A stretch of DNA of 64,000 nt from a virus (IMGVR_UViG_2609460060_000003:1-64000); one strand, 5' to 3'; numbered from the stretch's first letter, positions 5,023 through 50,462 are shown. The notes: a model not told the origin generated them from the sequence alone. Program-made: numbers and translations.

Positions 5023-5038
5023 TGTGATCAAAATCACA
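5023..5038. promoter_or_regulatory. CRP-like palindrome TGTGA-N6-TCACA in the porin upstream region
   Basis: Exact match to the CRP half-site consensus with 6-bp spacer, about 115 bp upstream of the porin ATG. Confidence 0.3.
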
Positions 5039-5963: not shown

Positions 5964-8940
5964 TATTTAGCTCCTTTGCCACACCTAATAACAGTTCCAG
6001 CAATCCGTCACCATTCATCAGTGATGCGGCAGCGGCCTCTTTGTCATGATACAACTGAAGAGCCATAGAGAATACTTCCGTTGCTGACGTTTTGGAAATA
6101 GTCGGTGATTTCTGCCGAATTTTCCCGGTGTTACTTACTGAGGCTGGCGGGTATACCTTCGCCATATAAATATTACTCAATCGAGATCTGAAGCACCATT
6201 CAGGCTTGCCACGCCCACCGATATTAACGAAAGATGGCTTATCCCCTTCAACATTGGCCTTCAGGAATGACCGGGCTTTCTCTAACAAACCAGGGTTACT
6301 GTACTCAAGATGATGACCCAGCTCGTGCCACAGTGCACTTGCATTTTCATCGTTCAAATTGACAGCAACAACACCATTAAGATTTGCATATGCCCTTCCC
6401 TGGTGGTGAACCACCTTTGATAAGGTCGAAATTTTACCGCCGGTCAGGCGATAAATATCAGCAAGTTCCTTGCGCAGGTCTATCCCACCATTCTGTCCAG
6501 CGCGGGCTTCTTCCACTTCTTCCGTGATAAAAGAGTCGGCCCACTCAAGAGCTTTTTCTTCAGATACGGATGAGTTTGCGATCGCACTGTTCATGGCAGA
6601 TAACACTTTCTCGTGGACCGAACCCATTCTTCGCTGATTCATTTGCCAGCGTGTCTGCGGGTTATATGAGAATCGCTTAAGTAGTTGGTCAAGCTGCTCA
6701 AGTTCTTCTTCACTGACATACCTTTTAGCCTCACCAATAATGCCAGGGAGAATATTGCCGTTAGGATTAAACGCTCGCGAAAGGAAGAGTTTCAGCGCCC
6801 CCATGCCCTCCGATGCTTCAATATCACCAATAACCCGGTTAACAATGGCCGCACTCTTCGGATTAGCATCCGCCAACGCTCTGGCTACAATTTGCAGGGA
6901 CGATACGACCTCACGCTGCATATCAGTCCTGATCTCATCAATAAACTCTGGCGTTATGCCGTACTCTTTAAGGATATCCCTGCCTTCCGCCGTTACCCCA
7001 TCGATATCACCGACATGTTTATTAACCCGACTTTGCAATGCCTTAAATGCCTTCAGAATTCCACGGGCATCATCCACTTTACTAACGGCCTTCCTGAATG
7101 CTGGCAAGAAGTCAGAGTTAACCTCATTTTGTTGATCGGCCCACTGAATGGAGGCTTCTTTCATCTCGTCCAGAGTCAGATCACCCAACGCGGTATGGTC
7201 TGTGAATATGAGCGACAACCTCTGAACCATTTCTGCCAATGGTGATGCCGAATGCGCCGCGCTAAGGAATGCTTTCACCCTGGTTGGGCGAATGGAAAAC
7301 CAGTCAATAGCTGGTGGCATATCTCCGTTTTTTATCGCCTGCGCTATCTCATCAAAGCCGTCGCGCCCAAGGGAGGATGCGTGATTTAACAATCCGCGAA
7401 GTAACGAATTGCTGATACCGAATAATCGGCACCATTTTTTTACGTCGGCAACAGGCATTCGGACAAAATGCGCAAGCACTTGTACAAGCTGCTCATCCTG
7501 GGGATCGGTGCGGGATAGCAGCCTGATCAGATGAATAATGTCTTTGATGCCGGATGCCCGATGTAATAGCAAGCTGGTATATGGAGCAACACCGTTGTAA
7601 CTACCGCCGGAAGCTGACTCGAAAAGACCGCCGGATATCCCTTGCATACCTTCGTTTTCCAGTTCCTGAGATACCTGGCGAAGGATATCCTGTAACGACA
7701 CATCACCGCCGCCAAACATATCCCCGAGCGCCTGGCCCTGGTGCTGTAACTCATCATTGATACGTTGCGCCATCAACTTAAAGGCGGTGGCCATACGCTT
7801 CGCGCTACGGTTATTCGCGACGATAAACAACGCGAGTGCTTTCACTTCCGGGGCCGTTTCGCTGAACATATCCCCCTGAGCAATAACATCGGTAATATGT
7901 TGGCCTGACTCCTTCGATTGTCTTACCAGGTCTACCGCATCTTTCAATGCAGCCAGCGCCTTTTTATCGAGGCTATCCGCTGTTTCAATGCTATCAACGA
8001 TAGTTGTCACAGCCTGCTTGTGCGCTTCTCCTGATAAAGCCTGCATCTGGACAAAATCATTGGCCGCCGCATTAAGCGCCGTCAGAACATTACGCATATC
8101 CGGATCAGGTTCTTCTGCAACCATCCTTACCAAGCGCGCATCCTTATATGCCTTGGCAAAGATCGCGTTTTGTATCCGGTCAACAAGTTGCCGTGTTGGT
8201 CGCCCATCTTCAGTTACAAGTCCAGCCGCCTGTGTGGCACCAACTTGCGTCATAAATCCGCGAATAAACGCGTCATTACTGCGGCTAAGCAGATCTCCGC
8301 TTTCTGACGGGTTAAAAAGCGCCATCATCGCCGGTGTTATGCTGTCGGCATCAACAAAAGCCTTTTCACTGGCTGCCATTTCCTGAAGATCAGAAATATT
8401 TGAGTCCTTGGCAAACTGAACGCGGTCAACCTTAGTTAACCGGCGGCGCACCAGTACCGGAGCCGTCATTGATTCAACCTTTTCAGGTCGTATGCCGAAT
8501 TCGGTCGCATGATCAATCAGGTACTCACGATACCGATCCGCATTGCCGTCCTGATAGGCTTTGATGATCCCCATGGTCCGTCCATTACCTGACTCAACGG
8601 CATTATCCTCACCAATTATCGGCGCGCCATGGCTGGATAAACCGGAATCAGTAAGCTGAGCAGGCCGCAAATCTTTGGATATCTGGTTAACCTGAAGAAG
8701 GCTGGATGCGCGGGTCCGGTCGCGCGGCTGAAGTTCCTGGGGATAGTCAGGATTAATTTTCCCATCCAGAGTATTGGATACCAAAAGAGCTGAGGCATCG
8801 ACGATATCAAACGCTGTTTTTACCTCGTCTCCCTTCGCTGTCACCACATACGAAACCCGCCCATAATCGGGCAGGTTCTTTAGCAGCTCGATCAGCGTTT
8901 CTATGCTGGTGGCCATTACCACCTGATCGCTTAAGCTCAT
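5953..8940 (-). CDS. ddrB: Large Dar-operon protein (DdrB-like), contains an HExxH motif
   Basis: 995 aa immediately downstream of ddrA in the lydA-darA operon order; WHELGHHLE motif near the C-terminus. Confidence 0.55.
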   Translation of the reverse strand: MSLSDQVVMATSIETLIELLKNLPDYGRVSYVVTAKGDEVKTAFDIVDASALLVSNTLDGKINPDYPQELQPRDRTRASSLLQVNQISKDLRPAQLTDSGLSSHGAPIIGEDNAVESGNGRTMGIIKAYQDGNADRYREYLIDHATEFGIRPEKVESMTAPVLVRRRLTKVDRVQFAKDSNISDLQEMAASEKAFVDADSITPAMMALFNPSESGDLLSRSNDAFIRGFMTQVGATQAAGLVTEDGRPTRQLVDRIQNAIFAKAYKDARLVRMVAEEPDPDMRNVLTALNAAANDFVQMQALSGEAHKQAVTTIVDSIETADSLDKKALAALKDAVDLVRQSKESGQHITDVIAQGDMFSETAPEVKALALFIVANNRSAKRMATAFKLMAQRINDELQHQGQALGDMFGGGDVSLQDILRQVSQELENEGMQGISGGLFESASGGSYNGVAPYTSLLLHRASGIKDIIHLIRLLSRTDPQDEQLVQVLAHFVRMPVADVKKWCRLFGISNSLLRGLLNHASSLGRDGFDEIAQAIKNGDMPPAIDWFSIRPTRVKAFLSAAHSASPLAEMVQRLSLIFTDHTALGDLTLDEMKEASIQWADQQNEVNSDFLPAFRKAVSKVDDARGILKAFKALQSRVNKHVGDIDGVTAEGRDILKEYGITPEFIDEIRTDMQREVVSSLQIVARALADANPKSAAIVNRVIGDIEASEGMGALKLFLSRAFNPNGNILPGIIGEAKRYVSEEELEQLDQLLKRFSYNPQTRWQMNQRRMGSVHEKVLSAMNSAIANSSVSEEKALEWADSFITEEVEEARAGQNGGIDLRKELADIYRLTGGKISTLSKVVHHQGRAYANLNGVVAVNLNDENASALWHELGHHLEYSNPGLLEKARSFLKANVEGDKPSFVNIGGRGKPEWCFRSRLSNIYMAKVYPPASVSNTGKIRQKSPTISKTSATEVFSMALQLYHDKEAAAASLMNGDGLLELLLGVAKELNNAD

Positions 8941-8952: not shown

Positions 8953-9318
8953 TTATGCTGCCTCTTTAATGTTGGCGGCTATCCATGCCGCCGTGTGCTG
9001 TTTAACCTGGTCCAGGTCGATGTATGTGCCAACATATTGACTCAAATCCTGCAAGGTACCGATAAATGCATCGGTGCTCTGATCGACGAATTTATCAGCC
9101 AGGAAATCAGCAACCAGTTTTGGCACACCATCATGTACCGCAGGTTGTTTTTCCTCGCCACTACTGCCGCCGGACACACCGTACCCCATCTGTTGCATGA
9201 TCTGGTCAATTTCATCGCTGATATCCAGCAACTCCATGCCACTAGCGGTAGCCGCTTTGGACATCAGAGCATCCAACTTATCGCTGAGATCCATTAACTC
9301 AATAGCTGATAGTGTCAT
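8953..9318 (-). CDS. ddrA: DdrA-like small protein of the dar operon
   Basis: 121 aa; start overlaps the darA stop; position between darA and ddrB. Confidence 0.5.
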   Translation of the reverse strand: MTLSAIELMDLSDKLDALMSKAATASGMELLDISDEIDQIMQQMGYGVSGGSSGEEKQPAVHDGVPKLVADFLADKFVDQSTDAFIGTLQDLSQYVGTYIDLDQVKQHTAAWIAANIKEAA

Positions 9319-11234
9319 GCCGCTACCCCCGCTTTCTGGATTGCTACCAGCAGATCAGCCAGGTGGCGAGCAGCGCCATTAACCAGCTCTTCGTTTTCCT
9401 CAAAACGCCCGGCAGCCTGAAGGGCTGCAATCGCTTCCCGGACATTACCCCGGGCGTTACGGATCTCCGCCATGTCAGTGCTTTGCATATCCATCACGTT
9501 ATTGAGATATTCAATGGCTTTATTAGCCTCTGCATCTGCTTCGCTAACCGTTTCATCAGGCTGTGCCGGGGCAGGTTCTGGCTGAGTAATCTCACCGACT
9601 TCGGCCTGCAATGCATTGATCATGCTCTGCACCATTTTCTCGGTGCCAGCGCCCCCCGGAAACGCAATATTGGGGAAAGTTTTTTGAAACTGAGTTTTCA
9701 GCATTACGCGGAACTCGTCTGGTGAGCTGGTGGCCAGATCCAGAGCTTTTTGTGCATATTTGCCAAACGGACCATTAGTAAGTGTCTTCGCCAGGAAGTC
9801 GAAAGAATCCTCGCGAGGCAATAACTTCAGGTCGTACTCACTCATTTGCTGATCAGAAAGCGGGGTATCGTAAGTAGCAATGCCGTAGCGTGCATATTCA
9901 TAATACGGGTCACCTTCATCAGGGCGCGGCAGAATTGCTTTGTTACCTTCAGGTATTGCGCCAGGGGCCGCCGGACGCATTTGCAAGGCATATCGATATG
10001 CACCTACAGAGACTTCTGGTTCAGGCGAAGAGCTACCGGTATCCTCCGCTGGTTCAGGTTCGACGTTTTCCGGTTTATGTTCTTCTGGTTGGACCAGATA
10101 TTCCGATACATTACCCGCTTTATAGGCTTTAAACAGCTTGCCGATCGCATCTGCCATGTCCACACCCTGTATGGATTTAGCCTTGATCATGTACACGCTG
10201 CCATCCGAATCGGTTAACTGGATATACCCTTCGCCGTCCTCAATGAATTGCTTCATTGATGCTCCATTACTGAGCGTCACTTCCCCGTTCATATGCATAC
10301 GATTTTTGATACTGGCAAGGCGATCCGTCAGCGCGCGCGAGTGCCCACCAGTCATCCCCGCTGGATCAATGGTATCGCGCCCACCTGTGCGATTGAGCTG
10401 ATCAATCTCCGTCTGCAAACGCTCATTCTCTTCATAAAGAGAATCCGCTTCCGATGCAACAGCGTTAATTTTCTGCTCCAGATCTACCTTCTGCCCTTCT
10501 ACCGCTGCCACCTGATCCGCGAGGTCGCTCATGGCATCCTCTTTCTGGTCACTGTCAGCCTGTAGTTGGGTTATTTCATCAACCAGGGCTTTTTTCTTCT
10601 TCTGCGCACGCTGGAATTTTGCCGAGTTTTTCTCTGCAAGGTTGGCAAGTTTCATGGTGACCTGCGCCAGCGTCATATCACGTCCACTCATCGGAGCAAC
10701 GGTATGAGTAACGTCTTTTTTATTCAGTAAGAACTGGAAAGCAATCAGCGTATCGCTATTGGTGATCCGGTTTTCCGCTGTCGGGCTATGAAACAGAATG
10801 CTGATAGTCTGACCATCACTGAGCGGAATAATGGCTGGCAGGACCGGCAGCCCGTTAACGTTACGTGCCCGGCCAATTTCAGCCCCGCCGATCGCGCGCG
10901 CGCCGTTCTGGGCCACATCCCCCGTTTTATCACTCCCCGCAGAGATTCCGGTACCATTCAGCTTCTGGTTCAATGCCCGGACAAATGCCTGCATGGTCCG
11001 GTGTAACTGCAAACGAGTAGAACTAATCGCCTCCAGTAAATCCGTAGCACACCAGTGGATCGGCGTGTCATAGAAGAACGTAGCCTCGATTTCCTCCAGG
11101 GTGTTGGATTCCGTCATCAGATAGCGGTCCTCACCGGCCATTAATGCGCGATATTCATCATCAGTCACTGGCGGGGGAAGCACGTCAAGCCCAGGCTTGA
11201 TCGTCACCCCTTTATTGATATTGAACTGTTCCAT
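9315..11234 (-). CDS. darA: DarA-like anti-restriction virion protein precursor
   Basis: 639 aa ORF at the expected operon position with the size of P1 DarA; start overlaps the hdf stop (TAACATG). Confidence 0.65.
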   Translation of the reverse strand: MEQFNINKGVTIKPGLDVLPPPVTDDEYRALMAGEDRYLMTESNTLEEIEATFFYDTPIHWCATDLLEAISSTRLQLHRTMQAFVRALNQKLNGTGISAGSDKTGDVAQNGARAIGGAEIGRARNVNGLPVLPAIIPLSDGQTISILFHSPTAENRITNSDTLIAFQFLLNKKDVTHTVAPMSGRDMTLAQVTMKLANLAEKNSAKFQRAQKKKKALVDEITQLQADSDQKEDAMSDLADQVAAVEGQKVDLEQKINAVASEADSLYEENERLQTEIDQLNRTGGRDTIDPAGMTGGHSRALTDRLASIKNRMHMNGEVTLSNGASMKQFIEDGEGYIQLTDSDGSVYMIKAKSIQGVDMADAIGKLFKAYKAGNVSEYLVQPEEHKPENVEPEPAEDTGSSSPEPEVSVGAYRYALQMRPAAPGAIPEGNKAILPRPDEGDPYYEYARYGIATYDTPLSDQQMSEYDLKLLPREDSFDFLAKTLTNGPFGKYAQKALDLATSSPDEFRVMLKTQFQKTFPNIAFPGGAGTEKMVQSMINALQAEVGEITQPEPAPAQPDETVSEADAEANKAIEYLNNVMDMQSTDMAEIRNARGNVREAIAALQAAGRFEENEELVNGAARHLADLLVAIQKAGVAA

Positions 11235-11235: not shown

Positions 11236-11838
11236 TTAATTTCCTGCTTTCAGTTGCTTAAGACGGCGTTTGAGTTCGCCATTTCGGGCCTTTTCGTTAT
11301 TGAGTCGGCCTGTCTCCTTATCCAGCTTCGCCCGCAAATCAGTGATCTGCTGTTGATTGAAAGACACCGAATTCTGCGCGGACTTATAAGCGGCAACCAC
11401 CTGAGCATTCCGCTGTTTTGCTTCTTGCAGGCGCTGAAAGTTGGATTTAACTGCCGGTTTCTTGTCTACCGGATTGGCAACACGCTTCGCTTTGGCGATC
11501 AGTGATTTCTGGAATTTTGCGGAGTTTTTGCGGGCCGCCTGTCCCATAACGGTACCAAGCGTCTTGATATCCGGCGACTGAGCGTTAGGAATAGCTTTTC
11601 CATTCAGTTTCACAGACGATATATCGCCAGTATCGTTTACCTGTATGGCAAGAATTTGTCCGTCGTTAAGAACCAGCTTTGCGGTTTTAACTTTAACGCC
11701 ATCTTTCGTTGTTGCGCGGTTGCTGGAGTCAACCTCAATTACCGTAACCCCGGTTTTATTGATCGCCGCGATAAGGGATTTCAGCCCCTTTTCATTAACC
11801 TGGTCAAAATCGACCGTTGCATACTTATTTTTCGTCAT
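11236..11838 (-). CDS. hdf: Hdf-like protein (dar operon)
   Basis: Second ATG (11838) has an AGGA RBS at good spacing; located between lydB and darA. Confidence 0.5.
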   Translation of the reverse strand: MTKNKYATVDFDQVNEKGLKSLIAAINKTGVTVIEVDSSNRATTKDGVKVKTAKLVLNDGQILAIQVNDTGDISSVKLNGKAIPNAQSPDIKTLGTVMGQAARKNSAKFQKSLIAKAKRVANPVDKKPAVKSNFQRLQEAKQRNAQVVAAYKSAQNSVSFNQQQITDLRAKLDKETGRLNNEKARNGELKRRLKQLKAGN

Positions 11839-12268
11839 CTGACACATCCTGTGCGAGATTTATTACGTAACTTCTGCGGATTTGCTGAGTAACAGGGAAA
11901 ATCCGATACAACGGGTTAATGAACGAGTCACCATGCGTAACCATGACGTTGAAATGCCACAGCCGTTCTCCTTTACCCATATATTCAGTGGGTATGTACA
12001 ACCATTCACTGTTTTCGCCCTGTTCAGCCGACGTCAGACAACGTTGTTCGCCTTCAATCACTGTCGTTGGCTTCTGAACATCGCGGATCCAATATCTGAC
12101 CGTTGCGCCGCGCAAAAACGGGAATTTAGACCGGTATTTGAACGGCACCCGGATGAAGCCCTGTTTAACTTCCACATCACCAAGTTCTAAATGCGTGATG
12201 TCCTTGCGTTTTAGCAAATAGCGATCGGCTAAGGCTAACGCAAGAACGCATACACCCCAGCCAATCAT
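11825..12268 (-). CDS. lydB: Antiholin-like protein LydB
   Basis: 147 aa; start overlaps the lydA stop (ATGA); position after the holin gene. Confidence 0.55.
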   Translation of the reverse strand: MIGWGVCVLALALADRYLLKRKDITHLELGDVEVKQGFIRVPFKYRSKFPFLRGATVRYWIRDVQKPTTVIEGEQRCLTSAEQGENSEWLYIPTEYMGKGERLWHFNVMVTHGDSFINPLYRIFPVTQQIRRSYVINLAQDVSDDEK

Positions 12269-12594
12269 TTCCCACCTCCCTTTTTCACCAAACTTGTAAG
12301 AACATTCAGAATGCTATCGATATTCACTCGTTTCATCCCTGAAATCACCTCATGACCGTTATTGCTGGCTATCGTTACCATTAAGTACGTAATTGATAAC
12401 TCCCAGCCCTCGTGTTGCCCCAATAGGTACGCCACCGCGCCAGCTGTCACTGCAACAAAGATCTCCGTAACCAATCCCAACAAATTGCCAGACTGGCGAC
12501 CATCTCGGACATCCATCAGGAACGTGCCTATCCCACCAATTACTGAAAGCAGGAGCGCAATAGCAACTGGAGCTAATTCCTGTGTGTCAAGCAC
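12265..12594 (-). CDS. lydA: Holin LydA
   Basis: 109 aa with hydrophobic transmembrane segments and a charged C-terminus; AGGAGG RBS. Confidence 0.7.
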   Translation of the reverse strand: MLDTQELAPVAIALLLSVIGGIGTFLMDVRDGRQSGNLLGLVTEIFVAVTAGAVAYLLGQHEGWELSITYLMVTIASNNGHEVISGMKRVNIDSILNVLTSLVKKGGGK

Positions 12595-12661
12595 AAGTTC
12601 CCTCCTACGTTGTCAGGAGGTAATGGTATGCAAAGTAACTTCTCAACCGGTCATGTTGCTT

Positions 12662-12695
12662 GACATCCTCCACGTCCTTTAGAGCGTGGAGGATG
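12662..12695. other. 12-bp-stem hairpin immediately 5' of the intron-like element
   Basis: ACATCCTCCACG / CGTGGAGGATGT arms with a 10-nt loop; the next base begins GTGCG. Confidence 0.6.
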
Positions 12696-13550
12696 TGTGC
12701 GCCCAGCATGGGCGCGATCTTGGAGGTGAAAGCCCTCCCGCGAGCTGACCACAGCGAGCGAAATGAAGTGCAACTGCGTGAGGGCGACCGGGCGTGGGGA
12801 GGAAGCACGGAATGAACCCGTGAGCCGATGAACGAGAATCGGATATGAGGCGCGATGGAGCAAGGCGAGCAGGCACATCACTGCGAAGCTTTCGTGGTCA
12901 AGTCGAAGTCGCGCAGATCCGACGGTTGTGCGGGGAAGGATCGCGTTCTTACCTGGGGAGTTCTCGCCTCATGCCTGAAAGGGCAACGTCGTAAGACGGA
13001 GCGAGAAGTCAGCAGAGGCCGTAGTAGTCAGGACTCCGACGAAGGGCCGAACGAGAAGGAAAGCCAGAAGATATGACTCTTGACAGGACATTGCGTCAGA
13101 AGCCGAGGAAGCCCGGTACGGACCCGCATGCCGGGTGGTGTGGCAGGGGCGCAGCCCTTGTGCTCCCCCCTATGCCGATCAAGCAGAACATTGTGCTGGG
13201 CCTCTGACGCAGCTCCTTGATGGTCTTGGCATCGTGCTTAAGTGGATTGGTGTCGTCCCTGATAGGATCATGGAGGCAGAATGAAACTCAAAAATCCGGG
13301 ATAGCACGCAAAACAGGCTGCACAAAAAGCGCAGGTTGCGTAGGAGTGAAATCCCGCTCCCAAAAAATGGTGCAGAAGTTGCGGCAGTGGTCATCCGACG
13401 CACTGGAAAATAACAAACCCGCCGTGACCAGAATCGGAGGCCTGAGGGAGTGACCGAAAAACCGGACAACCCAGGCAGCAAATACCCGCTGGATGAGGCA
13501 TGGTTCCGGCAGATAATACCGAAAACCGCCAGACACACTGGATAATCAGT
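12696..13550 (+). mobile_element. Group II intron-like structured RNA segment (no intact reverse-transcriptase ORF; 3' boundary uncertain)
   Basis: Starts GTGCGCCCAGCATGGGCGCG (group II 5' GUGYG signature); GC-rich and GNRA-rich; CCGTAGTAGTCAGGACTCCGACGAAGGGCC resembles a domain II/III region; only short Arg/Pro-rich ORFs on both strands. Confidence 0.45.
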
Positions 13551-13599
13551 AGAAATAATCCATTAAAGTTATTATAATAATTGGTCACATTATTATATT

Positions 13600-14163
13600 A
13601 TGCTGAACAATAGAAATATGACTATTAATGAACTTAAAGACTGTATTCACTATGAAGTAATTGGTAGCGAGCGTCCTTTCTCTTGGCGAAAAGCAATTGT
13701 TCGCGCAATAAAACATAGAAGAGTTCGTTATTTATTTTGGTGGCGCATATCAAAATATCTTTTTGATAAAGGCGGATACAGGCGAAAGGTTGCAGGGAAA
13801 ATAGAACGCTTCATTCTTGACAAATACAATGTAACCGTTCCCTTAACGGTAAATATAGGGAAAGGGTTTGACATATCTTATCTCAATGGCGTTGTTATCG
13901 CTCACAAAGTCACAATCGGTGAAAATTGTTCAATTAAGCCCGGAGTAACTATTGGACTTCGCGGGGAATTTAATGACATGGATATTGTTATAGGAGATAA
14001 TGTGACCATTGGTTGTAATGCCACCATTCTTGGTGGCAAAGTGCGTATAGGAAACAATGTCACAATAGGTGCTCATGCATTGGTATTGCATGATATTCCT
14101 GATGATTCAACATTCATCACTAAATTTCAGTCTGAAGTTATCTGCTCGTCCTCCCGCACATAA
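13600..14163 (+). CDS. Hexapeptide-repeat (left-handed beta-helix) acetyltransferase, WcaB/CysE-like
   Basis: Tandem [LIV]-G-x4 repeats ([16 protein letters not shown]...[33 protein letters not shown]); AT-rich coding sequence; 3' end overlaps convergent tfa by 37 nt. Confidence 0.8.
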
Positions 14164-14744
14164 CCCTGATTCATCAGCTCTGGCCATACGATATCCGGAG
14201 CTGTACTGGTATCAATTCGACTCACTAATACTCTGTATTTTCTCCAGGAGTCCAGTTGTGAATTTTCCTCGTTTGTTGCTATTTCAAGATTAACTGCGTC
14301 CTGCAGAATTGCGATGTTATCTGTTGCCTCCTGGATCAACCTTGCCTTTTTCTCTTCCGCTTCCCGTATCCGAAACAGTTTTTCTGCTTCCTCATCCTTC
14401 ACCCAGGATACGCCGTCCCACTTCTGATACTCCCCTGCTGGCGACAACCAGGTGACATTCTCTGGTAGCGGTCCGGGTTCAGAAATAAACAACGCGTCCC
14501 CCGATGCCACCTCATAGACCGTTTTACCACGATGGTCTTCAACAATATTCCACGATTCATTTTCACTGTTGAAAACTGCCACAAAGCCAGTAGGAATTTC
14601 CGGTGGGGCGATATCTGTAGAATTAGCTGGCAGCCCTGTATGAGGTGGAATATATGCGTCATCTTCACCAATAAACTCATTAGTTCCGGCCAGCAGGTTA
14701 TAAATTTTTACTGTACGTGATTGTTCACTCATTCTGAATGCCAT
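14127..14744 (-). CDS. tfa: Tail fibre assembly protein (lambda Tfa-like)
   Basis: [51 protein letters not shown] is near-identical to the lambda Tfa N-terminus as recalled; start overlaps the tail-fibre stop (TAATG). Confidence 0.9.
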
Positions 14745-17700
14745 TATGCAAGCCTCACAATATAATTAAATGCGATGTTTTTAACGGTGTTTTCCGCGTT
14801 ACCAGCAGCATTAACGGTGATGGTATGTCCATGTGAACCAATCGCAACAGAGTGCGTATGAGCGCCAATACCAACTGTATGTGCATGCGCCCCTGCACTT
14901 GCAGCAGTGCCTGATACTGAGTGGGTGTGTGCACCAGAAGAAGGCACTGTTCCATTCCCCACGACCGTGCCACTTGATGAACCATCAAGCCAGTCGAAAT
15001 TCATACCTCCACTGTTTGGTCTCCTTAATGGAACGGTATGAGTATGTGCGCCAGCACTATTTGCAGTACCAGATACATTGTGGGTATGTGCACCTGTGTT
15101 ATTCGTTGGTTTAGTACCGTAATCAAACGACGATGTGGTTTTCGTCCCCAAATCCGTACTGGATGCGCTGGCGCTGTGGGTGTGCGATTTAATGCCGTCC
15201 TGTTCCTGAGACAATACGGCCCGACCACTGGCAGGTTTGCCCTTAATCGTCCAGCCACGCATATCAGGGATCACGCCTGACGGATAAGCCGCTGCAAGTT
15301 TCGGGTAGGCAGATTTGTCAAAAGCCTGCCCCTGCATCAGGGCATAGCCAGACGGAACGGTATCTGATGGCCACGGGATTGGTGCGCCGACTGGGTAGCT
15401 TTCTGGTGGAAGATTTTTCGAGGTATAAACTTCTGCCCAGTCTTCCTCAAAACCATAACCGTCTCTTGAAGAACGGTAGAACAGACCACCATTTCTGTAA
15501 TGCGCCTTCATCTGCAGGGTCCGGCAACTTCCGAATCCGGTATAGAAGTTAACCAGAATATAGCTGTCGCCAGAGCGGGTGACATTGTAAGCGCCTGATT
15601 CGGCATTCCAGGGAACGCCACCATCCGCATCGGCATATGTATCCGTTGACCCTCTGGCAAAAGCAGCCACATGCGCGGCGGTTAAAGTGATATCAGTAGA
15701 ACCATCAAATGGAACACCGGATATTTTTCTTGCAGTCTGAAGTTTTGTAGCAGTTGCAGCATTACCGTTCAAACTACCATTGATGCCGCCAGTAACATTG
15801 AGTCCATTACCGATCGTAACAGCACCATTGGCATTGTTAATGATAAGCGGCCTTAACCTATTATAGGTTCCTAGGCTGTTACCCGAATCGGTCAACATGA
15901 AATATGTGTTTGAACCATCGTTTCGGATAAAGAATCCGTAGTTTCCGTAGGCAATGCGCAGACCATTCGCCGATTTGGAAATAATCTCGCCAGCAGCAGT
16001 TAATCCGCCAGTTAACGCTCCTCCAGATAGTGGTAAAGCTCCGACATCAGCCGCAGTAGGCTTGTTTTTAGTGTTATACGCTCTGCGCCATCCTGGTGAA
16101 TAGCTCGTCCCGTTAAACACATAGACAAACTCCGCATTAGTGAGTGCGCCAGAGACACCTGTCGTTGTTGCCGTTGTTATACGAATCGTATAATTGTTTG
16201 AGCTACTGCCGTTATTAAATACCTCAATAACTGCGCCAGCCAGTGGAATAATGCCGCATCCTGTTTCGCTGTCTGGTATGGATGCACTATTTGCATACGC
16301 CCAGGCACAACGCGCTATCCATGCTTTTGCATTAAAAGCACCATTATCTCGTAGCAGAGTCACTAATTGCTCTGTTGTTATTGAAGCTCCATTATCACCT
16401 GTTACAAGCCAACCAGTAGGAGATGCCGGGCAACCAATATTTGCTGGTGACAGTGAAATATTCGCAGAACCGTCAAATGAAACCCCATTAATGGTACGCG
16501 CTGTTAGCAATTTGGTAGCCGTAGCTGCATTACCGGTTGTGTTCTGGTTACCAGCAATGTTTACACCCGGCAGATTGATATTGGCGGAGCCATCGAATGA
16601 TACGCCGCCTATTGTGCGTGCTGTTTGCAGTTTTGTTGCAGTTGCAGCATTGCCAGTAGTGCTCTGATTACCTGTTTTATTCACACCTGGCAGGTCGATG
16701 TTTGCGGTACCATTAAATGAAACGCCACCAATGGTTCTTGCCGTTTGTAATTTCGTGGCAGACGCCGCATTTCCTGTTGTGTTCTGGTTGCCCGTTGTAT
16801 TTACGCCCGGTATGGAGTCTTTCGATGTATAGACCTGTGCCCACTCAGACCATGCCGCATCTGTGTTATCTCTTCGGGAGCGAATGAAAACTGGCGCATG
16901 TGCACCGCTCGTACCACTCCAGCCAATAAGCAACTCGCCCTCACCAGCAGCACTCGCACCTTTCATGTGCAATACGTTGCCATACGTGGTCGGGTAGCTA
17001 TTGTTGTACGCCTCGTACATTTGAATGCCAGCAGTGCCTTGAGTAGAGCCGCTTAACGCCGTAACTCGGCCACGAGATACCAATGTATTAATGTTGATAT
17101 CGCCTGAGCCATCAAACTTAACACCGTTGATGTTTCTTGCCGTCGCAAGTTTTGTCGCGGTAGCAGCATTCCCCGTGGTGTTCTGGTTACCTGTTGTATT
17201 TACACCTGGAAGATTGATATTGGCCGAGCCATCAAATGCCACACCGCCAATCGTGCGTGCTGTTTTCAATTTCGTCGCGGTGTCGGCGTTCCCTGTCAGC
17301 GCCCCGGTGATCCCGCCGTTGAAAGTCTGGCGCGCACTCCATGTGTTAGCCGTGCTCAACAGGGGGATCTTTTCACCGCTGGTACCGAGTTCTCTTAAAC
17401 CAAGGTATTGGATAACGGCCAGTGTGCTTGTTTTAGCCAGAATATCGCGACCGACTGACGTTAAATCAGTCTGCGCTACCGTATCCTTACCAGTGAAATA
17501 AGGCAGTTTGTTTGCACCAGTCGCAAGGGCAGCGAGCGCGGTTAAAGTTGCATCCAGAGGCTGTTTGCCTGCCAGCGCATTTGTCATTGTTGTCGCAAAG
17601 TTCGGGTCATTGCCCAGTGCTGCTGCAAGCTCATTCAGAGTATCAAGAGCTTCAGGTGATGAGCCGACCAATGCAGAGATAGCAGCTCTTACATAAGCGG

Positions 17701-18763
17701 TCGTAGCAATCTGCGTGTTATTCGTACCCTGTGCAGCGGTAGGCGCAGTAGGTATTCCCGTTAATGCAGGACTTGCTAAAGGAGCTTTAAGAGCCAGAGC
17801 ATTGTTGATAGTTGTGCTGAAATTCGGGTCGTTATTGATCGCAGCAGCTATTTCTTTAAGCGTATCCAGTGTGCCAGGTGCACCGTTGATAAGTGCCGTT
17901 ATAGCTGCCTTAACAAAGGCTGTATTTGCGATCTGCGTGCTGTTTGTACCTTGCGCTGCCGTCGGCGCGGTTGGCGTTCCTGTCAGACTCGGGCTTTCTA
18001 TTGGCGCTTTGGTATCAGCCAGCTCTTTTACAGACTTAACGGCTTTAGGGGTAGCCGCCATTGTTTCGCTGTCGCTGTTAGTTGCGCTACTGAGCTGAAC
18101 TAATCCCTTTTGTGTTGTGCTTGCATCCTGCGCCGTATACTTGCTTTTAGCCAGATCGTAGGCTTTTTTAACTGCCAGCGAACTCGCAGCAACATCACTT
18201 CTGGTACTGGTTACAGAGTCTGAAATATCAATGCCGATCGTGCGGTTGATACGCTTGGATGTATCAATCATCTCCTGGGTAATGGCAGATACACCAGCAG
18301 GGATATTCACCGTACAAACAAGCAGCTCCCCATCTCCTAACTGATATGAATCGGTATAGGTTCTGGAAACAAATTCAGCCGCATGAATATGTGACGCGGT
18401 ATTCACCTGATAGGTATCTTCTCCAAGGAGGTATCTTCCCTTCAGCACAATTGCATATTTCTTGCCTGCACTAAGTGCAAGAGAAATATCCTTACGTTGC
18501 TGAATAGTTACCTGGTAGAATTCACCAATATCCACCGACGCCGCGCCTGCGGTTTTATCACCATCCACTGAGGTGATTAACAGGTTCATCCCACCGCCAG
18601 GCTTAGGTAAGAAACCGGCATAAAATCCCGGGTCAACAATCCCCCTGAATTTTCGGTTTAGCGCGGCTGACAGATATGGTTCGTGGTATTGCACATCAGC
18701 CACCAGAGCCAACGACTCGGGTGATGGGTAAGTAACCGATGTGACAACTGTAACGTCATTCAT
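14744..18763 (-). CDS. Tail fibre protein (P1 S-like N-terminal part with lambda Stf-like distal part)
   Basis: 1339 aa from ATG 18763 (AAGGA RBS); at least six ~24-aa repeats [28 protein letters not shown]; followed by tfa. The track ORF from 18850 overlaps the upstream gene and is rejected as the start. Confidence 0.85.
17390..17415. other. Relic DNA-invertase crossover site (cix/gix/hix-like) inside the tail fibre gene
   Basis: TTCTCTTAAACC-AA-GGTATTGGATAA: 26 bp, two 12-bp half sites around a central AA, matching the Hin/Gin/Cin recombination-site pattern; no second copy and no invertase gene in the window. Confidence 0.5.
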
Positions 18764-18774
18764 CAAGCATATCC

Positions 18775-19209
18775 TTATGCTGTAGTCGTGTTTATGGCCA
18801 TAACTGCGGTATATGTTTTGCCCACATACAGCGAGTCTTCCTGGACACAAATAATGGCGATTGGCTTGTTCTCGTTATCCAGAACAACCAGAGTGTTGAA
18901 TGGGTAGTTTTTCCCTTCCTGCAACTGGCTTTGATCAAGGTCCATTCGGACAGTTATTATCCCGCCTGAGTAGGTTGGGACGAGGTTGATGGTGCAAAAT
19001 TGACTGGTCAGTTCTGCCAGATCGAAAGCCTTTGGCAGTTCTCCAATCTCATAAGTGCCATCTCCTTTCTTAGTAACCAGTGAACTGGTACCGAAAACGG
19101 CCTTGCTGATTAAAAATCGAGAGCCTTTGTTAATGGACGATTCAGCGCGCCGCTGATAGTAATAGTCCAACAACTGACTCTTATAGAGGTTTGTTGAGAC
19201 GTCAGACAT
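18775..19209 (-). CDS. Tail fibre-associated protein (P1 R-like)
   Basis: 144 aa immediately upstream of the tail fibre gene; stop overlaps its RBS. Confidence 0.45.
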
Positions 19210-19287
19210 GATTTTCCCTAATCAATGTTGTGAAGCCTCATTGTAAGAGAAGTAACTTGTCACCCCGCCCTGCGGACGGGGTGATTG

Positions 19288-20127
19288 TCAGGCGTCGCTA
19301 TCCAGCAACAAATCATCTGCGCGTGTGCGATCAAACGTAGGTGTCGCTTTCACAATAGTGCCACCAGGCGTTGCGGTGATCGGGGCGCTAATCGACGTAA
19401 CTCCAGTAAGCGAAGTTGTATCCGAAGTTTCAAACCAGCAGAATGCTTTTTCGGTATCAGAAATCTCGTTCAAAGTGATCATGTCGGCCTGTTCATTTAC
19501 AACAACCGACAAATAGAGCGTAAGCCCATCAAACACTATATGCAGTGGCAGTAGAGGCTTTACGAACTGATTAAACTTTCTGAGAATTTCTTCTGTAATT
19601 GCGGACTGATCTATCGTGCCAGTAATCCCCATTGTCCGGGCCAGGTCGTTTATGGGAATACTGATCATCCCTCTGGAAGTCAGAAACATCTCGCCGAATG
19701 TGCCGCCGGTAGTCTCCAGTGTGCTTTCTGGTATTAGAACCGTGCCATAGGGATGACGCTCAAGGTCCACCGGTGCATATATCGGATCCCATAAAACAGA
19801 AATACCGTTAAATTCGCGGTAAATTGTCTGGTTTATAGGGCGTTCAGTCCCCTTAAAGTGAATCTCATCAAGACGCTGTTGTAACAACATCGGAACGGAA
19901 GATGAGTTCGACGTTCTGATAGTAAAGAACTGGCCAAGTTCATTTGTCCTGGTCTCCAGATCCTCCTTGCTCATGGAAAAAATAGACTTCCGGTTGGTAA
20001 TTCGCTCCAACCATGGGTCAACAAAGGTATCCATCATTGACTGAACCAAATCAGCCAATGATTTATAAAGTAATGACTTTTGCTTAGCTGATGTAAGCCG
20101 GTTATTAAACCAGGAACGCTGCATCAC
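19288..20127 (-). CDS. Baseplate protein (P1 gp16-like)
   Basis: 279 aa in the tail/baseplate block; stop overlaps the next gene. Confidence 0.4.
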   Translation of the reverse strand: MMQRSWFNNRLTSAKQKSLLYKSLADLVQSMMDTFVDPWLERITNRKSIFSMSKEDLETRTNELGQFFTIRTSNSSSVPMLLQQRLDEIHFKGTERPINQTIYREFNGISVLWDPIYAPVDLERHPYGTVLIPESTLETTGGTFGEMFLTSRGMISIPINDLARTMGITGTIDQSAITEEILRKFNQFVKPLLPLHIVFDGLTLYLSVVVNEQADMITLNEISDTEKAFCWFETSDTTSLTGVTSISAPITATPGGTIVKATPTFDRTRADDLLLDSDA

Positions 20128-21557
20128 TCCTCCTCATACGAAATATTAAAGGTGGAGTTTTCTGTATCCAGATAAACGAAATCGTAAAAGCCGTTGGACT
20201 CATTCCACTCGACAAATTCCAGATAAAAGTCGCGGAAATAACCCAGCGTTTCGATAAATGCCCAAACGTCTTTTTTCTTGATTAGGATGTACTTGCCGAC
20301 ACGGTTCGGATCAAAGAAAGTTGAGTCACGCCCAAATTTTGTTTCCAGTGCCGACTTCAGCTCATCAGTCACGTTCTCAATGGTCAGGCTTGCCGATATC
20401 CGCCCAGTGATGGTGATCTTAAAGGGGAGTTTTCTGACCTCTTTATACGAGAATTTCTTGTTCAACTCATTCGGCACCTTCTTAAAGGCAGCCAGGATCA
20501 TTTCTTCAAGCTCTGACTGGCTTTTGTTTGGATGCCATCCTGAAATAAATATCTTATTGATATTCCGAACATTATAAGCACCATCTAATTTCTCTTGCTG
20601 GCCTTCGCCCCATGCCTTTACCCAGGACAGTCCCGGGATGTTACGCACCAGAAAATACGTATAGTCCCCGCCCCATACGACCTGATCATCATAGGCAAGG
20701 TAATATTGTGCACGGTTACGTGTGATCTCCGTTGTTTCGGCATCGGTACCTGCGGTTATAGGTGTCGTTGTCTTAACTGAAATCAAATTAGCTAAATTAG
20801 CCGCAGAATCGACAGGCGTCAGGTTTTGGCCAGCAACCAGGGTTATATCGCCGTTGGTGCACCATACCTTAAGCGTAATGGTCGAGCCTTCTGGCGGTAT
20901 TTGCCCAATTAGCCCATCACCGAATCGAACCCCCAACTGCTCGGATGGTTTATAAAACTCAACGTAGACCTGGCTTTTACTACCGGCTAACCGGAACATA
21001 GTGCTGGAAGACCACTGCGTGGTCTTACCATCGGTCGTCACGAATACTTCCAGCTTATAGCAGACAGCAGTGAGAGCCTTTGATAACACGACTTCCAGAA
21101 ATTCTTTGGCTGCCGTAACGGTATATGTCACCTCCTGGATTTCCAACTGTGCCACTTCTACCGTACCGGTGCCGTCAACCAACCTGCATACATCCATAGT
21201 CATGTAAGGGTACTGGTCGTCAGATATTAAAGGCATGTTTTTGGGGATTACCGCTGGGGCATCTTCACTTGTGGCGGTGATCTCAATCATCCCCGATGAC
21301 GGTGTTGGCTTGGTACCAACGTAACTATTCGTTTCTGCCGCTGCCAGGATAGAGGAACGCCGCGTCGCGGTCGATATAAAGCCTTCAGCCAGCGCCGCAT
21401 CGGCATACTGAAAGCACCTGTAGACAATCTGGGTAATAAACAATGTCAGCATCGAGACAAATTGAGAGCCGACAAACTTCGACCAGAATGAATCTTTCTC
21501 GACAAGCTCTTCAAACTCTGCACGAATACTGTCTTTAGTCGGTGTTGTTTTACTCAT
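20124..21557 (-). CDS. Baseplate protein (BplA-like)
   Basis: 477 aa, translationally coupled to flanking tail genes. Confidence 0.45.
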   Translation of the reverse strand: MSKTTPTKDSIRAEFEELVEKDSFWSKFVGSQFVSMLTLFITQIVYRCFQYADAALAEGFISTATRRSSILAAAETNSYVGTKPTPSSGMIEITATSEDAPAVIPKNMPLISDDQYPYMTMDVCRLVDGTGTVEVAQLEIQEVTYTVTAAKEFLEVVLSKALTAVCYKLEVFVTTDGKTTQWSSSTMFRLAGSKSQVYVEFYKPSEQLGVRFGDGLIGQIPPEGSTITLKVWCTNGDITLVAGQNLTPVDSAANLANLISVKTTTPITAGTDAETTEITRNRAQYYLAYDDQVVWGGDYTYFLVRNIPGLSWVKAWGEGQQEKLDGAYNVRNINKIFISGWHPNKSQSELEEMILAAFKKVPNELNKKFSYKEVRKLPFKITITGRISASLTIENVTDELKSALETKFGRDSTFFDPNRVGKYILIKKKDVWAFIETLGYFRDFYLEFVEWNESNGFYDFVYLDTENSTFNISYEEE

Positions 21558-21913
21558 AGCACCACGTCCTGTGTGATAGTTATATCCCTGATACGAATGG
21601 ATATTTTCAACTTATCAAAAGCATCTCCCTCGGCTACTGACAAGCCAGAAATCGGTATGTCAGGTAAATCTACCGTCAGTTTTTGCAACAGCATTGCCTC
21701 AACCGCAATTTGAACATGCGACAAGTTGGTCGGTTCGTGTTTAAACTGCGGTAAAACATTGCCCCATGACGGATCTCCGTATACCTCACCCTGATAAGTG
21801 TTTAGCCACTCATATAAACGAGCGCCCCAGGCCTCCTCCTGGGACTCATACGTTTTTACGCCGGATAACTCCAGCGTCAGTAAAGGATCAATTTCATTAT
21901 TGTTGGCCATCAA
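21554..21913 (-). CDS. Small tail morphogenesis protein
   Basis: 119 aa, overlaps both neighbours by 4 nt. Confidence 0.4.
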   Translation of the reverse strand: MMANNNEIDPLLTLELSGVKTYESQEEAWGARLYEWLNTYQGEVYGDPSWGNVLPQFKHEPTNLSHVQIAVEAMLLQKLTVDLPDIPISGLSVAEGDAFDKLKISIRIRDITITQDVVL

Positions 21914-24900
21914 TCAACTCTCGCGTAGTCATTCATCAACGGATCATCAATTGACAGTGGCACCGTGCGCATAACGCCCGGTTGAGGCGTGCTGACCTTT
22001 ACGACAGTTCCCTGGCCTTTCGCCGAGTCTTTAGTGTGCTCTTCAATCCTGGCAAGCAATGAGGTCATCTGCGCAAACAGCCGCTTCGTTTCACCATCAA
22101 GTGAAACGGTATTATCAGCCAACTGCATTGTCGGCTTGGCACCGGAGCCGCCAAGGTCACTAATAACCTGTCCGTCTATCTGCATACGACCGGTTGGTTG
22201 CTGCAAATCGTTGGCGGCAGTCGTCACCTGGGACGTGGAGGCTGGTTCAGGAGAATTATTTGAGCGCATTCCCCGGGCATTAATGAGTTTGTCATACAGT
22301 CCATCAATCCCCATTTGTGCGCCGAGCTGGTCAAAGTAACTTGAGTTGTTGGCCACCGGACGTGCCTCTTCAACTGGCATAGGTGTATCAACATACACAT
22401 TGCCAGCAGCCGTTGCGGTCCCCTTCCCTCGTGCACGTTCTTCGAGCGTTCCCTGAACAACTTCCCGACGCATCCCCCGGCCATTCAGGAATTTGCTGGC
22501 CAGATCGTTCACCCCCGTAAGTTCACCAATCCGGTCTACTAATCCCCCTTTTTCAAACGGGTTTTCGCCAGGGGTAAACGCCAGGCCCGTAGACTGATCA
22601 ACAAAGGCGTTTTCAGGAAGGTTATCCATTCTTGGTGATTGGCCACTTTGTTGCGGTCTTCCTCCTTGTGTTCCTGCTCTAGGTGTATAGATTTCACCAC
22701 CTAAATAGCGAGCACGATGAGTATTGACCTTGATCGCGTACTCACGGTTTTCTTTCGATAAGTCACCTGTGCCTTTTTTCCACTTATTAATAGTGCCAAA
22801 CCCAGCGTTATATGCAGTGATGGCCTCGTTTAAGTCTCCATTGGCTTGCTTCAGATACTTGCTCATGAGAAGAGCCGCAGCTTCTGCCGATTTTTCCGGA
22901 TTAAAAGAATCTTCCCGGGATAATCCAGTTTCCTCACGAGCAACGCGCGTAAACTGGAACATCCCGAGTGCGCCACCACTTAACTTTCCATCTGGTGATC
23001 TTGTAAGCGGAGACTTTGCGTTAGGATCCCCTCCTGATTCAGTTGCAGCAATCGCGTAAAGAGTGCCTTCAGGAAGACCATATTTATTCTCTAGTTCAGC
23101 AAAATACGGAGCTAACTTATCGAGATTTGCCTTACCTTCAGCGCCAAGGCTTCCGACTTTTACATCTAAGTTGCCATTATTGTAGGTATCAGCAGCTTTC
23201 TGAATGTCATTCCCAGTGCCGGTGGTATTACGCGACGATGATGACGAGCTATTTTGTCCAATAGCTGAATCAATTTTCCGCACCGCGCTATTGCCCATTT
23301 CTACGGCATTTGCATTGATAATCTGATTGGCAGTTTCTTTAACTGTTTTATTGCTATCTTTCGCCGTGTCCAGTGCCGCATTTATCACGCGGGTAGCAAT
23401 ATTAGTCTGTTTAGCATCGGATTCAGTTTTAGAATCAGATGTCTCCTGGTGGCTATTAACCGGAGCTTTTAACTCTGGAGTGATTTCTTTTGCATTAGCC
23501 TCGCCGATCGGATTGGGTATTTTTGATACAATCATTGCCGCAGGGGTATTTTTAACGGCATCAACCGCTGCATCTAATGCTTTACCGGGTAAATTTTTAA
23601 CCCCATCCCAAATATTACCAGCCGCCTCTTTAATGTGTTTCCCTGGGTTCTTAATGAAGTCAATTGCACTATCAATTGCATCACTGAAAACCTGTTTCAG
23701 GTTATCGACAGTAAAGAAGTCTTTGATGGCATCCAGCTTTTCAAGCAACTTATTAGATGTATCGCTAAACCATGCTGAAACAGCATCACCAATCTTTGCT
23801 GTGTAATCATCGAACTTGGTAGAAATGGTGTCGCCAAGGTTAGAAATATATGTTTCTAAGTTGGTAACCCCGCTATCAATGGCCTGGGCAATACTTTCCG
23901 TCGAAAATGATTGCAACATATTGCCGATATCCTCAAATCCAAGTGATTTGAGAACATCACCAATAGCACTGCTAATACCAGATACCAGTCCCCCCAAATC
24001 AAGAACATTGGCTAACGTATAAGCGGCTTTTTGCTGGAATGATGGATCTTGTCCTGATTTAAGCCCAAACGCTCGACGTTGCGCTTCTGTATCATTCCAA
24101 CCGGTTACCGCATCATAAATACCTCCAGCCACTGTGCCGACTAGGGGAATTGCGCGTAACGCCCCTTTACCAACTGCCTTTAATCCAAGTTTACCTGCTG
24201 CCCGGGCAGCCAAATCTCCGCCTTCATGGGCGAGAGTCTTCTTGCCCCCACCGCGTAGCATTCCTACGAGTCTCTTTGCCCCCAGAGCGCCAAAAGCGAG
24301 TGCTCCAGCTTTTTTCAGCATGCCACGCCCCATTAACAACGACGCGACGCCACCGGCCCCCTTCCCTAACAGGCTAAATAGTTTAGACAGCAAGCCGCCC
24401 TTCTTTTTCCCGGTGTTTTTGGCTATCTGATCAAGGGCGCTGAGAATCTTGTCATTGCCCTCTTTAATTTCGCTGGTCTGCTCCTGAAGTTCCTGAACCG
24501 TCCGTTTTTGGGTGTTAACCTGAACGACATCGGCACTATTTTGCGATTTACGCCTAAAAAAACCTTTTCTACGGCTGTTATCGTCATTGCCACGAATCAC
24601 ATCGGCAATAGACTTTCTGGCACCATTAAGCGATCCACCAACTTCTTTTGATATCCCGCCAAGCTCCTTCCCTGCTGCCCACAATGGACCAGCAACGGCA
24701 TAACCTAACGCATCAACGGCACGAGTCTCTGAAGGGTTACCTATGCCTTCAGCTACTTTTGACAGTTTTTTTAATAAACCTGATTCAGCATTTAGACGCT
24801 CATCATCCTCTTTGCGCCTGGCCTTTTCAGCACGTTCAGCACGGGCATCTTCCGCTGCGGCCTTACTCCCTGACTTTCCAATAAAACGACCACGCGCATC

Positions 24901-25644: not shown

Positions 25645-25725
25645 GATCTTATCGCCTACCGTTTCGGTTTAAGTTTTTCTTCCAGTTTCTCCAACAGGAA
25701 AAACGCATAGGATTCAGTAAGCCTT

Positions 25726-26607: not shown

Positions 26608-26621
26608 CCTTGCTCCTTAAT

Positions 26622-27233
26622 TCAAAGAGAAAAGCTAAAGCCCAGAAGGGAAGCCAAAGAACTTGAGGATTGGTTAAACGTGCTGTGCAATGCGAAGGTC
26701 ATTGGGAATGACTTAAATTCAGTAACCTGATCTCGCGCATAGGTGACATCGCCGGTAGTGACCGGGAATACCGTCATCTCATTTTCCAGTTTGGTTAAGC
26801 CGGAAGACAGCAACCGATAAATACGCACATTGAGCAAATATTTAGACGGTATATTCCCGGTACCGTCCGGATTGATCACCCGACTTTTTGCCGTCTTAAA
26901 CCAGTCCAAAACGAGGCCATCAACGGTATCCCTGACCATCATTGTTATCTGCCCAGGCGAACGCTCCGTTGGTTGAAGGATATTCCCTCCGCCGATTTTA
27001 ATCGTTTCATATTCGATGCTGTAATCGTGGTAGGTAATGTCTTTGGCAAAGAAGTCTGCCCCCTCCAGTCCATCAACTTCGACAGAGAACTGCCATCCTT
27101 GCGCGAACAGCATTTTGTTCATGATGATTGACGTCAGCTTACCAACTTCCCGCTCACCAACGCCGGAGCCAAATAATGTCGTCGTTAATGCCGAAGATAC
27201 ATAAGACTTTACTGAAGCAACATTAAGCCCCAT
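26622..27233 (-). CDS. Tail tube / baseplate structural protein
   Basis: 203 aa in the tail block. Confidence 0.4.
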   Translation of the reverse strand: MGLNVASVKSYVSSALTTTLFGSGVGEREVGKLTSIIMNKMLFAQGWQFSVEVDGLEGADFFAKDITYHDYSIEYETIKIGGGNILQPTERSPGQITMMVRDTVDGLVLDWFKTAKSRVINPDGTGNIPSKYLLNVRIYRLLSSGLTKLENEMTVFPVTTGDVTYARDQVTEFKSFPMTFALHSTFNQSSSSLASLLGFSFSL

Positions 27234-50457: not shown

Positions 50458-50462
50458 CTTTA

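Follow-up and report, generated by a model that had tools for sequence, protein, structure and literature searches.

An orphan cixR site and a single mosaic tail fibre in a lineage of P1-like phage-plasmids

When the tail-fibre gene of a phage-plasmid carries the crossover site of a DNA inversion switch, does the rest of the switch still exist? The question is raised by a locus within 64,000 nucleotides of viral DNA (IMGVR_UViG_2609460060_000003:1-64000; 'the window' below means this whole stretch), for which an initial annotation had proposed that the span 14127-18763 is a tail-fibre locus with one relic cix-like site, no invertase and no alternative fibre. That span corresponds exactly to the tail-fibre gene S and the chaperone gene tfa. 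The evidence set out here makes it very probable that the element is a P1-like phage-plasmid in which the Cin switch was removed by replacement of a segment, leaving cixR as an orphan within a fixed, single fibre gene.

To invert DNA, the recombinases Gin, Cin and Hin need two inverted sites that share their core dinucleotides, together with an enhancer bound by Fis, all on one supercoiled molecule. Crossover sites of this 26-bp class stand at the constant/variable fibre junction in the G segment of Mu (Gin), in p15B (Min) and in e14 (Pin), all of which are working two-site or multi-site systems with an invertase of their own.

The crossover site and the missing parts of the switch

The features on which the question turns are as follows.

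17390-17415, no strand: orphan crossover site identical to cixR, TTCTCTTAAACCAAGGTATTGGATAA, with core dinucleotide AA at 17402-17403
17259-17389, minus strand: 131-bp remnant of the terminal inverted repeat of the P1 C-segment, directly distal to cixR
14744-18763, minus strand: S, a single, intact tail-fibre gene of 1339 amino acids from its ATG, starting like P1 S
14127-14744, minus strand: tfa, encoding a lambda-type tail-fibre assembly chaperone (Caudo_TAP) in place of P1 U

The site agrees at 26 of 26 positions with the cixR of P1 (AF234172), labelled there 'recombination site cixR; region of Cin recombinase binding', and the crossover annotated at nucleotides 36480/36481 of that record equals position 17402/17403 of the window. 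It is the sole match with at most three mismatches in the 64 kb, where none was expected (100 shuffles). It encodes VIQYLGLRE (residues 450-458 of S) in the same codons as in P1 and at the same place, the boundary between the constant (Sc) and variable (Sv) parts of the fibre, so that the window has a crossover-site sequence where an inversion switch has one. The proposal of a Cin/Gin/Hin-type site at roughly this junction was therefore well founded, and in related invertible segments, those of P1, MH422554 and JL22 (ON018986), the same 26 bp are the genuine cixR.

Identity at all 26 positions is nevertheless no evidence, taken alone, of selection on the DNA site, because the flanks are ~96% identical to P1 (about one difference would be expected) and because the site encodes a conserved peptide, for which cixR was presumably kept; the homologous peptide is VLEYLGAGE in lambda Stf, which is not invertible. 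The lambda peptide and the unremarkable nature of the match would also suit a lineage that was never invertible, in which the 26 bp are simply conserved coding sequence and the resemblance to cix is incidental. We regard this reading as very improbable. Identity to cixR is complete, and the similarity runs on for 131 bp into the inverted-repeat sequence that is duplicated in P1: this remnant matches the arm next to cixL and the one next to cixR alike, at ~97% identity (positions 2878-3032 and 7001 onward of the P1 locus both align to 17259-17413 of the window), and only beyond 17259 does identity to P1 fall to ~71%, where a different Sv allele begins. Moreover, the shaft of the fibre is formed by an Sv allele of the P1 family that a cin-positive element also has, P1-like synteny stands on both sides of a clean lydC-to-Sv replacement, and cin-positive elements form the majority of P1-like plasmids; among PLSDB records 565 match Sc and 464 match cin, unmatched sets that serve only as a crude guide to the frequency with which cin is absent. 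Loss of the switch, rather than its primitive absence, is suggested by three findings together: the exact cixR, the part of the inverted repeat that remains, and the Sv allele held in common with a cin-positive element.

The other components were sought both in the window and in NZ_CP062860.1, a complete plasmid of 97,512 bp that is 98-99% identical across the aligned window. With P1 Cin as query, tblastn found no homologue in the window (best E 3.5, which is noise) or in the complete relative (best E 5.6), where the only annotated recombinase, a site-specific integrase, takes the place of P1 cre. Partner sites were sought by counting mismatches to cixR and by scanning for the core pattern. 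Neither sequence holds a second cix site at up to 8 mismatches in 26, the next-best 26-mers having at least 9, and the window thus has a single site in place of two inverted ones with identical core dinucleotides. As a positive control, the same mismatch scan was applied to the cin-positive P1, MH422554 and JL22, and in each it recovered cixR together with a cixL that is inverted and has 4 mismatches. A degenerate palindromic pattern (TTN5AAACCNNGGTTTN5AA, with 3 mismatches allowed) gave 4 matches against 3.9 expected and was discarded as useless for finding partners.

Three of the four cin-positive relatives examined have cixR with an inverted cixL. The fourth, NZ_CP062890.1 (L008), which is also P1-like, has only a degenerate cixL-like site at 3053-3078, with 9 mismatches to the inverse of cixR and core AT as against AA; no coding sequence for S is listed there between tfa and R, and the switch of this plasmid may also be non-functional.

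The enhancer of P1 is a 72-bp sequence inside cin, and the best ungapped match to it in the window, 36 of 72 positions, is at chance level, a comparison that covers the P1 enhancer sequence only. No counterpart of lydC, cin, cixL, Sv', U' or U was found in the window, tblastn matches falling only at the single S-Tfa locus or at the paralogue lydA; likewise, P1 U, U', Sv and Sv' and the window's own Tfa, used as queries, all matched at that one locus. There are no inverted repeats of note of at least 16 nucleotides in 11500-19500 and no inverted copy of 17150-17500 anywhere, and a search for alternative variable segments or chaperones in opposite orientation between inverted repeats found none. 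Nor does NZ_CP062860.1 contain the P1 enhancer, a second Sv/U set, lydC or any long inverted repeat. The absence of an invertase, an inverted partner site and a second Sv/U set, as initially described, thus stands for the window as judged by protein search, site scan and repeat search alike.

Could an intact switch persist with its invertase and partner site beyond the window? Some 33 kb lie outside it, as the window maps to roughly 8.6-78.8 kb of the 97.5-kb relative. The chance of this is very small indeed: the near-identical complete replicon has neither a Cin homologue nor a second site within the mismatch limit, nor any annotated recombinase other than the integrase, and within the window foreign DNA occupies the position that cin, the enhancer and cixL hold in P1, with no alternative Sv or U left to invert. 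A lone site that has neither a recombinase nor an enhancer to go with it should not be able to invert; of the elements that it requires only one remains at the locus, and cixR should accordingly be inert.

A P1-type fibre with an imported tip

The surroundings of S show where P1-like DNA ends and other DNA begins.

12265-12594, minus strand: lydA holin gene, the last P1 gene before the left breakpoint at 12661/12662; lydC, next in P1, is absent
14744-15379, minus strand: imported fibre tip, 92% identical in amino acids to the H tip of a P2-like prophage
18775-19209, minus strand: R, the conserved first gene of the fibre operon
19240-19258, minus strand: counterpart of LPs, the P1 late promoter, with one substitution relative to P1

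On the left, similarity to P1 (darA-hdf-lydB-lydA) ends at 12661, after lydA. On the right it resumes at 17259, 131 bp beyond cixR, and extends across R, gp16, bplA and sit, with 96-97% nucleotide identity over 17259-26812, which places the locus among P1-like (Punavirus) tail-fibre operons. In P1, cin, the enhancer and cixL lie directly to the left of the C-segment. Set against this Cin-cix system (AF234172), the window agrees in the sequence of cixR and its position in S, in Sc, R, LPs, the flanking genes and the 131-bp repeat, but is without cin, cixL, the enhancer, Sv', U', U and lydC, and has a tip and a chaperone of another type.

The fibre itself is built of blocks: Sc (residues 1-454), a P1-family Sv allele to about residue 986-1035, a short unassigned stretch, and a lambda/P2-type tip (residues 1119-1339) that begins at the Collar domain, the others recognised being Phage_fiber_2 and Gp34_trimer. 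Residues 1-1035 are 87% identical to the S protein of MH422554, which sits in an intact, cin-positive invertible segment, and nucleotide similarity reaches down to 15804. From the Collar onward, the last ~220 residues are 68% identical to the C-terminus of lambda Stf / orf-314 (over 246 amino acids). Tandem arrays in the fibre gene were sought with Tandem Repeats Finder and none was found. Directly downstream of this Stf-homologous end lies tfa, giving a lambda-type chaperone with its cognate tip: the Caudo_TAP match is strong (E 2.8e-39, 134.7 bits against a Pfam cut-off of 22.1), and identity is 79% to lambda Tfa over 188 amino acids but only 46% to P1 U, over 63. An Rfam match to IS009 inside tfa (14203-14401, minus strand) scored 75.9 bits, below the gathering score of 117, and was dismissed as an RNA gene, being most likely plain homology among tfa sequences.

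The nearest relatives of the imported module are nonetheless P2-like chromosomal prophages, not lambda. The stretch 13530-15379 is 93.7% identical in nucleotides to such a prophage in NZ_AP043644, with amino-acid identities of 98.5% for Tfa, 95% for an acetyltransferase described below and 92% for the tip; the three genes lie there between baseplate and tail-sheath genes. The Stf-Tfa module of lambda and the H-G modules of P2-like prophages share with the window the Collar-to-C-terminus tip and the Caudo_TAP chaperone, and in the P2-like case an acetyltransferase gene likewise follows tfa convergently, but in the window the module is grafted on a P1 Sc/Sv shaft of ~1100 amino acids.

The view that the distal fibre and Tfa are lambda-like thus needs dividing. 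It applies to the last ~220 residues and to Tfa, whose first 60 residues are, as initially noted, nearly identical to those of lambda, and fails for residues 459 to ~1035, which are P1-family Sv. Similarly, alignment to P1 S and lambda Stf bears out the mosaic but not a junction at cix. The mosaic junctions fall at 17258/17259, around 15380-15800 and at 12661/12662, none of them at the crossover point, and the passage from P1-family to foreign sequence lies 1.6-2 kb distal to cix, roughly at a domain boundary. Lying away from the site, these junctions suggest that the exchange came about by homologous or illegitimate recombination and was not the work of Cin. A junction made by Cin at cix was rejected, since P1-family similarity crosses the site in nucleotides as well as in amino acids.

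The same junctions bear on whether the orphan site might still serve as a substrate, with invertases of the Pin/Cin family, provided in trans by the host or a co-resident element, acting to recombine it with quasi-sites or with other elements and so to swap fibre modules. Gin, Cin, Hin and Pin complement each other, and nucleotide similarity between SJ46 and the window ends inside the site, at 17396, as occasional exchange would predict. Such activity is nevertheless highly improbable: a second inverted site and an enhancer are needed on the same molecule and neither was found, and the junctions of this element lie elsewhere than at the crossover point.

Replacement of the switch has left the rest of the operon apparently in order. 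It has the LPs counterpart and R, the frame of S is uninterrupted and Tfa is cognate to the fibre, from which the operon would otherwise seem functional, and open reading frames for S, Tfa and the acetyltransferase are intact in two diverged sublineages, the window type and that of LR890336. The element would accordingly make a single type of fibre, with the proximal rod and shaft of P1 and a lambda/P2-type receptor-binding tip folded by Tfa. The fixed, mosaic host-range determinant suggested at the outset is thus supported both by the absent switch parts and by the block structure.

What fills the deletion

The initial annotation left aside the loss of lydC and the DNA that now stands between lydA and tfa, in which the following features are found.

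12664-12695, no strand: stem-loop with a perfect 13-bp stem at the left breakpoint (-29.3 kcal/mol, z -5.3)
12697-13178, plus strand: group II intron of 482 nucleotides, without an open reading frame of its own, directly after the stem-loop and starting GTGCG
13179-13529, no strand: block of ~350 bp at the scar, without a protein-family match, found only in the cin-less P1-like lineage
13550-13578, plus strand: match to a sigma-70-like promoter, TAGAAA-17-TATAAT (10 of 12 positions; a consensus match only, such sites being at chance frequency in the region)
13600-14163, plus strand: gene for a hexapeptide-repeat (LbH) acetyltransferase (Hexapep), convergent with tfa and overlapping it by 37 bp

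The stem-loop is absent from P1, is present in the intron-less sister NZ_CP033848.1 and was the target of the intron insertion. Domains D1-D4 of a group II intron are recognised well above threshold (RF02001, 96.9 bits against a gathering score of 32; RF01998, 46.8 against 35). The D5/D6 model RF00029 matches over its full length at 13107-13179, though below threshold (17.4 bits against 40, E 0.73), and this weak match ends at the 3' boundary of the insertion as set by the empty site. The 5' 420 nucleotides and the 3' 70 nucleotides each match introns of other bacteria. No intron-encoded reverse transcriptase was found in the 482-nucleotide insertion, whose sole open reading frame (12855-13076, plus strand) has no match in Pfam, NCBIfam or PHROG; the same is true of the frame at 13179-13538 on the minus strand, and both were treated as non-coding.

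The empty site lies in NZ_CP033848.1 (L012) at about 5965-6005, where GGAGGATGT is joined directly to CAAGCAGAAC; in the window the intron stands between these halves. This uninterrupted site proves that the intron arrived later and was inserted exactly behind the stem-loop, and on this ground a reading of 12697-13182 as a truncated 5' intron fragment was dropped in favour of an intron with complete ends. Insertion targeted to stem-loops, the behaviour of bacterial class C introns, is neatly illustrated by this 482-nucleotide intron, for which an empty site can be shown. Pieces of the hairpin and of the intron 5' end also occur in F-type plasmids, as uninformative fragments.

The acetyltransferase gene lies in a region of 37% G+C and has its start at 13618 in the PGAP annotation. 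Its product belongs to phrog_2154 over the full length (E 7.5e-78). It did not reach the NCBIfam equivalog cut-offs for EpsC (81 against 150), CysE (72 against 211) or WcaB (62 against 195), and because these curated thresholds fail the name 'serine acetyltransferase' is weak. Of 5426 complete E. coli genomes, 231 carry the convergent, overlapping acetyltransferase-tfa pair, for the most part within chromosomal (P2-like) prophages; it is seen at 13560-14400 of the window, and at 9089-10215 and 3579-4677 of the compared loci L005 and L007. A distant acetyltransferase, 36% identical, takes the same position inside the invertible segment of JL22. Since the acetyltransferase is recurrently linked with a receptor-binding tip, one might speculate, by analogy, that it has a receptor-modifying function in lysogenic conversion. 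Prophage-borne O-acetyltransferases are known to adjoin tailspike genes, as does NeuO of CUS-3. An extension of this idea is that tip, Tfa and acetyltransferase form a mobile cassette among P1-, P2- and lambda-like elements, with the lysogen acetylating the very structure that the tip binds, and that capture of the cassette made phase-variable host range dispensable, the switch then being discarded and not merely broken; this we put forward as an unlikely scenario.

Relatives, order of events and meaning

The state described is not peculiar to one replicon, being that of a lineage of at least 37 database plasmids. The full arrangement is present in 24 complete PLSDB plasmids at 99.7-99.8% identity, and the scar block is full-length in 37, of which 36 are from E. 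coli and one from Klebsiella, KX518745 (the mcr-1 plasmid pHYEC7-mcr1) being among them; in two plasmids (CP059910, CP057381) the fibre region is interrupted by IS100. Inverted repeats often break short-read assemblies, and an invertible region might in principle have been collapsed into the present arrangement. An artefact of this kind is effectively refuted by the independent assembly of the 24 complete plasmids that share the arrangement, and of the 37 that share the scar, with continuous reading frames.

Relatives with other arrangements show how the region varies. LR890336 has the same scar, acetyltransferase and Tfa with a shorter fibre of 1181 amino acids; cixR is kept, and there is no cin in the region examined. 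NZ_CP033848, likewise cin-less, has the same scar without the 482-nucleotide insertion, and its fibre has been replaced from inside Sc, so that cixR too is gone; a macro-domain gene is inserted there between fibre and tfa (NZ_CP033848.1, L012, 7581-11386). In JL22 the order is lydC-cin-Sv'-U', followed by an acetyltransferase gene, tfa and an stf-tipped S, with the cassette on one arm and the switch structurally intact. This phage-plasmid (PMC9603915) shares with the window a P1-like backbone and a fibre arm whose end is made up of an stf tip of lambda type, tfa and, convergent with it, a gene for an LbH acetyltransferase, but keeps the cin, cixL, Sv' and U' that the window has lost. As JL22 carries such a cassette within an intact, cin-positive segment, module capture and switch loss are separable. 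It was rejected as a direct ancestor because its tfa and acetyltransferase are different alleles, with 76% identity to the window for Tfa and 36% for the acetyltransferase.

Published comparisons place these observations in context. In 54 P1-like phage-plasmids, lydC-cin-Sv'-U'-U-S is one of eight highly variable regions, and in JL22 a serine acetyltransferase gene and tfa were reported to replace U and part of S (Wang et al. 2022, PMC9603915). Plasmids whose cin is truncated or altered, or from which the C-segment is missing, have likewise been described, with switching 'presumably lost' (Venturini et al. 2019, PMC6906374), and other P7-like plasmids have a Min-type region of the p15B kind instead (PMC5786510). 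The plasmids pSvP1, pTZ20_1P and pJIE250-3 (PMC6906374) resemble the window in that the tail-fibre switch is presumed lost and host range fixed; they differ in the manner, with truncation or rearrangement mediated by insertion sequences, or replacement by a Min-type region, where the window has a clean cassette replacement that left the fibre operon intact.

The order of events that best fits this evidence would be as follows. The ancestor would have been of a P1-like phage-plasmid lineage with a Cin-type invertible C-segment in an LPs-R-S-Tfa operon. Replacement would then have removed everything from distal Sv through U, U', Sv', cixL and cin (with its internal enhancer) to lydC, and brought in a cassette from the lambda/P2 prophage pool (tip, Tfa and convergent LbH acetyltransferase) along with the stem-loop and the short block; the mini group II intron would have been inserted later, after the stem-loop. 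Finally, cixR may have survived only as part of a retained reading frame encoding a conserved peptide.

Several points weigh against this account. Firstly, the window is 64 kb of a replicon of ~97 kb, and absence elsewhere is taken from the 98-99% identical relative. Secondly, the module of JL22 is a different allele, which makes it an analogy or parallel case and not a direct intermediate, and no cin-positive element with the exact module of the window was found among the best 60 PLSDB matches to a chimeric query (P1 cin plus window 13530-19500). Thirdly, a functional fibre is less certain in view of two relatives that gave no plaques: JL22, which was inducible, formed virions and lysogenised (PMC9603915), and pMCR_SCKP-LL83, an mcr-1 plasmid that is P7-like and whose fibre region is of another, Min type (PMC5786510).

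Comparison with relatives yielded further observations away from the fibre locus. The sit gene (transglycosylase/tape-measure-like), longer in these plasmids than in P1, contains a 168-bp direct repeat, ~92% identical between 25078-25245 and 25375-25542, which was seen as cross-matches to NZ_CP062860.1. That relative also has, at 12192-19807 against 3567-5431 of the window, an IS1-flanked autotransporter insertion that the window does not have. A tRNA cluster (Asn-Tyr-Thr, with Met (CAT)) lies at 50383-50629 and 52070-52145, its tRNA-Tyr (50463-50549) falling where the otherwise collinear NZ_CP062860.1 aligns poorly; for a published P7-like plasmid only tRNAs for Asn, Thr and Met are listed (PMC5786510).

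Loss and variability of this region have largely been described already (PMC9603915, PMC6906374), and the finding is in that sense an ordinary one. What is added here is the explicit persistence of an exact cixR as an orphan, a block map of the fibre and the anatomy of the scar, of which the intron and the acetyltransferase-Tfa-tip cassette are more interesting than the loss of the switch itself. Together with its relatives the element forms a graded series of switch decay, from P1 through JL22 and the element of the window to NZ_CP033848, which has no cix, although no new principle emerges. P1-like phage-plasmids spread mcr-1 and extended-spectrum beta-lactamase genes, and their reach depends on the fibre; the arrangement described here is present in pHYEC7-mcr1 (KX518745). 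Whereas P1 alternates between two specificities, members of this lineage are expected to have just one tropism, determined by the lambda/P2-type tip; this, if of modest practical value, is relevant to the prediction of host range and to the use of such elements as vectors.

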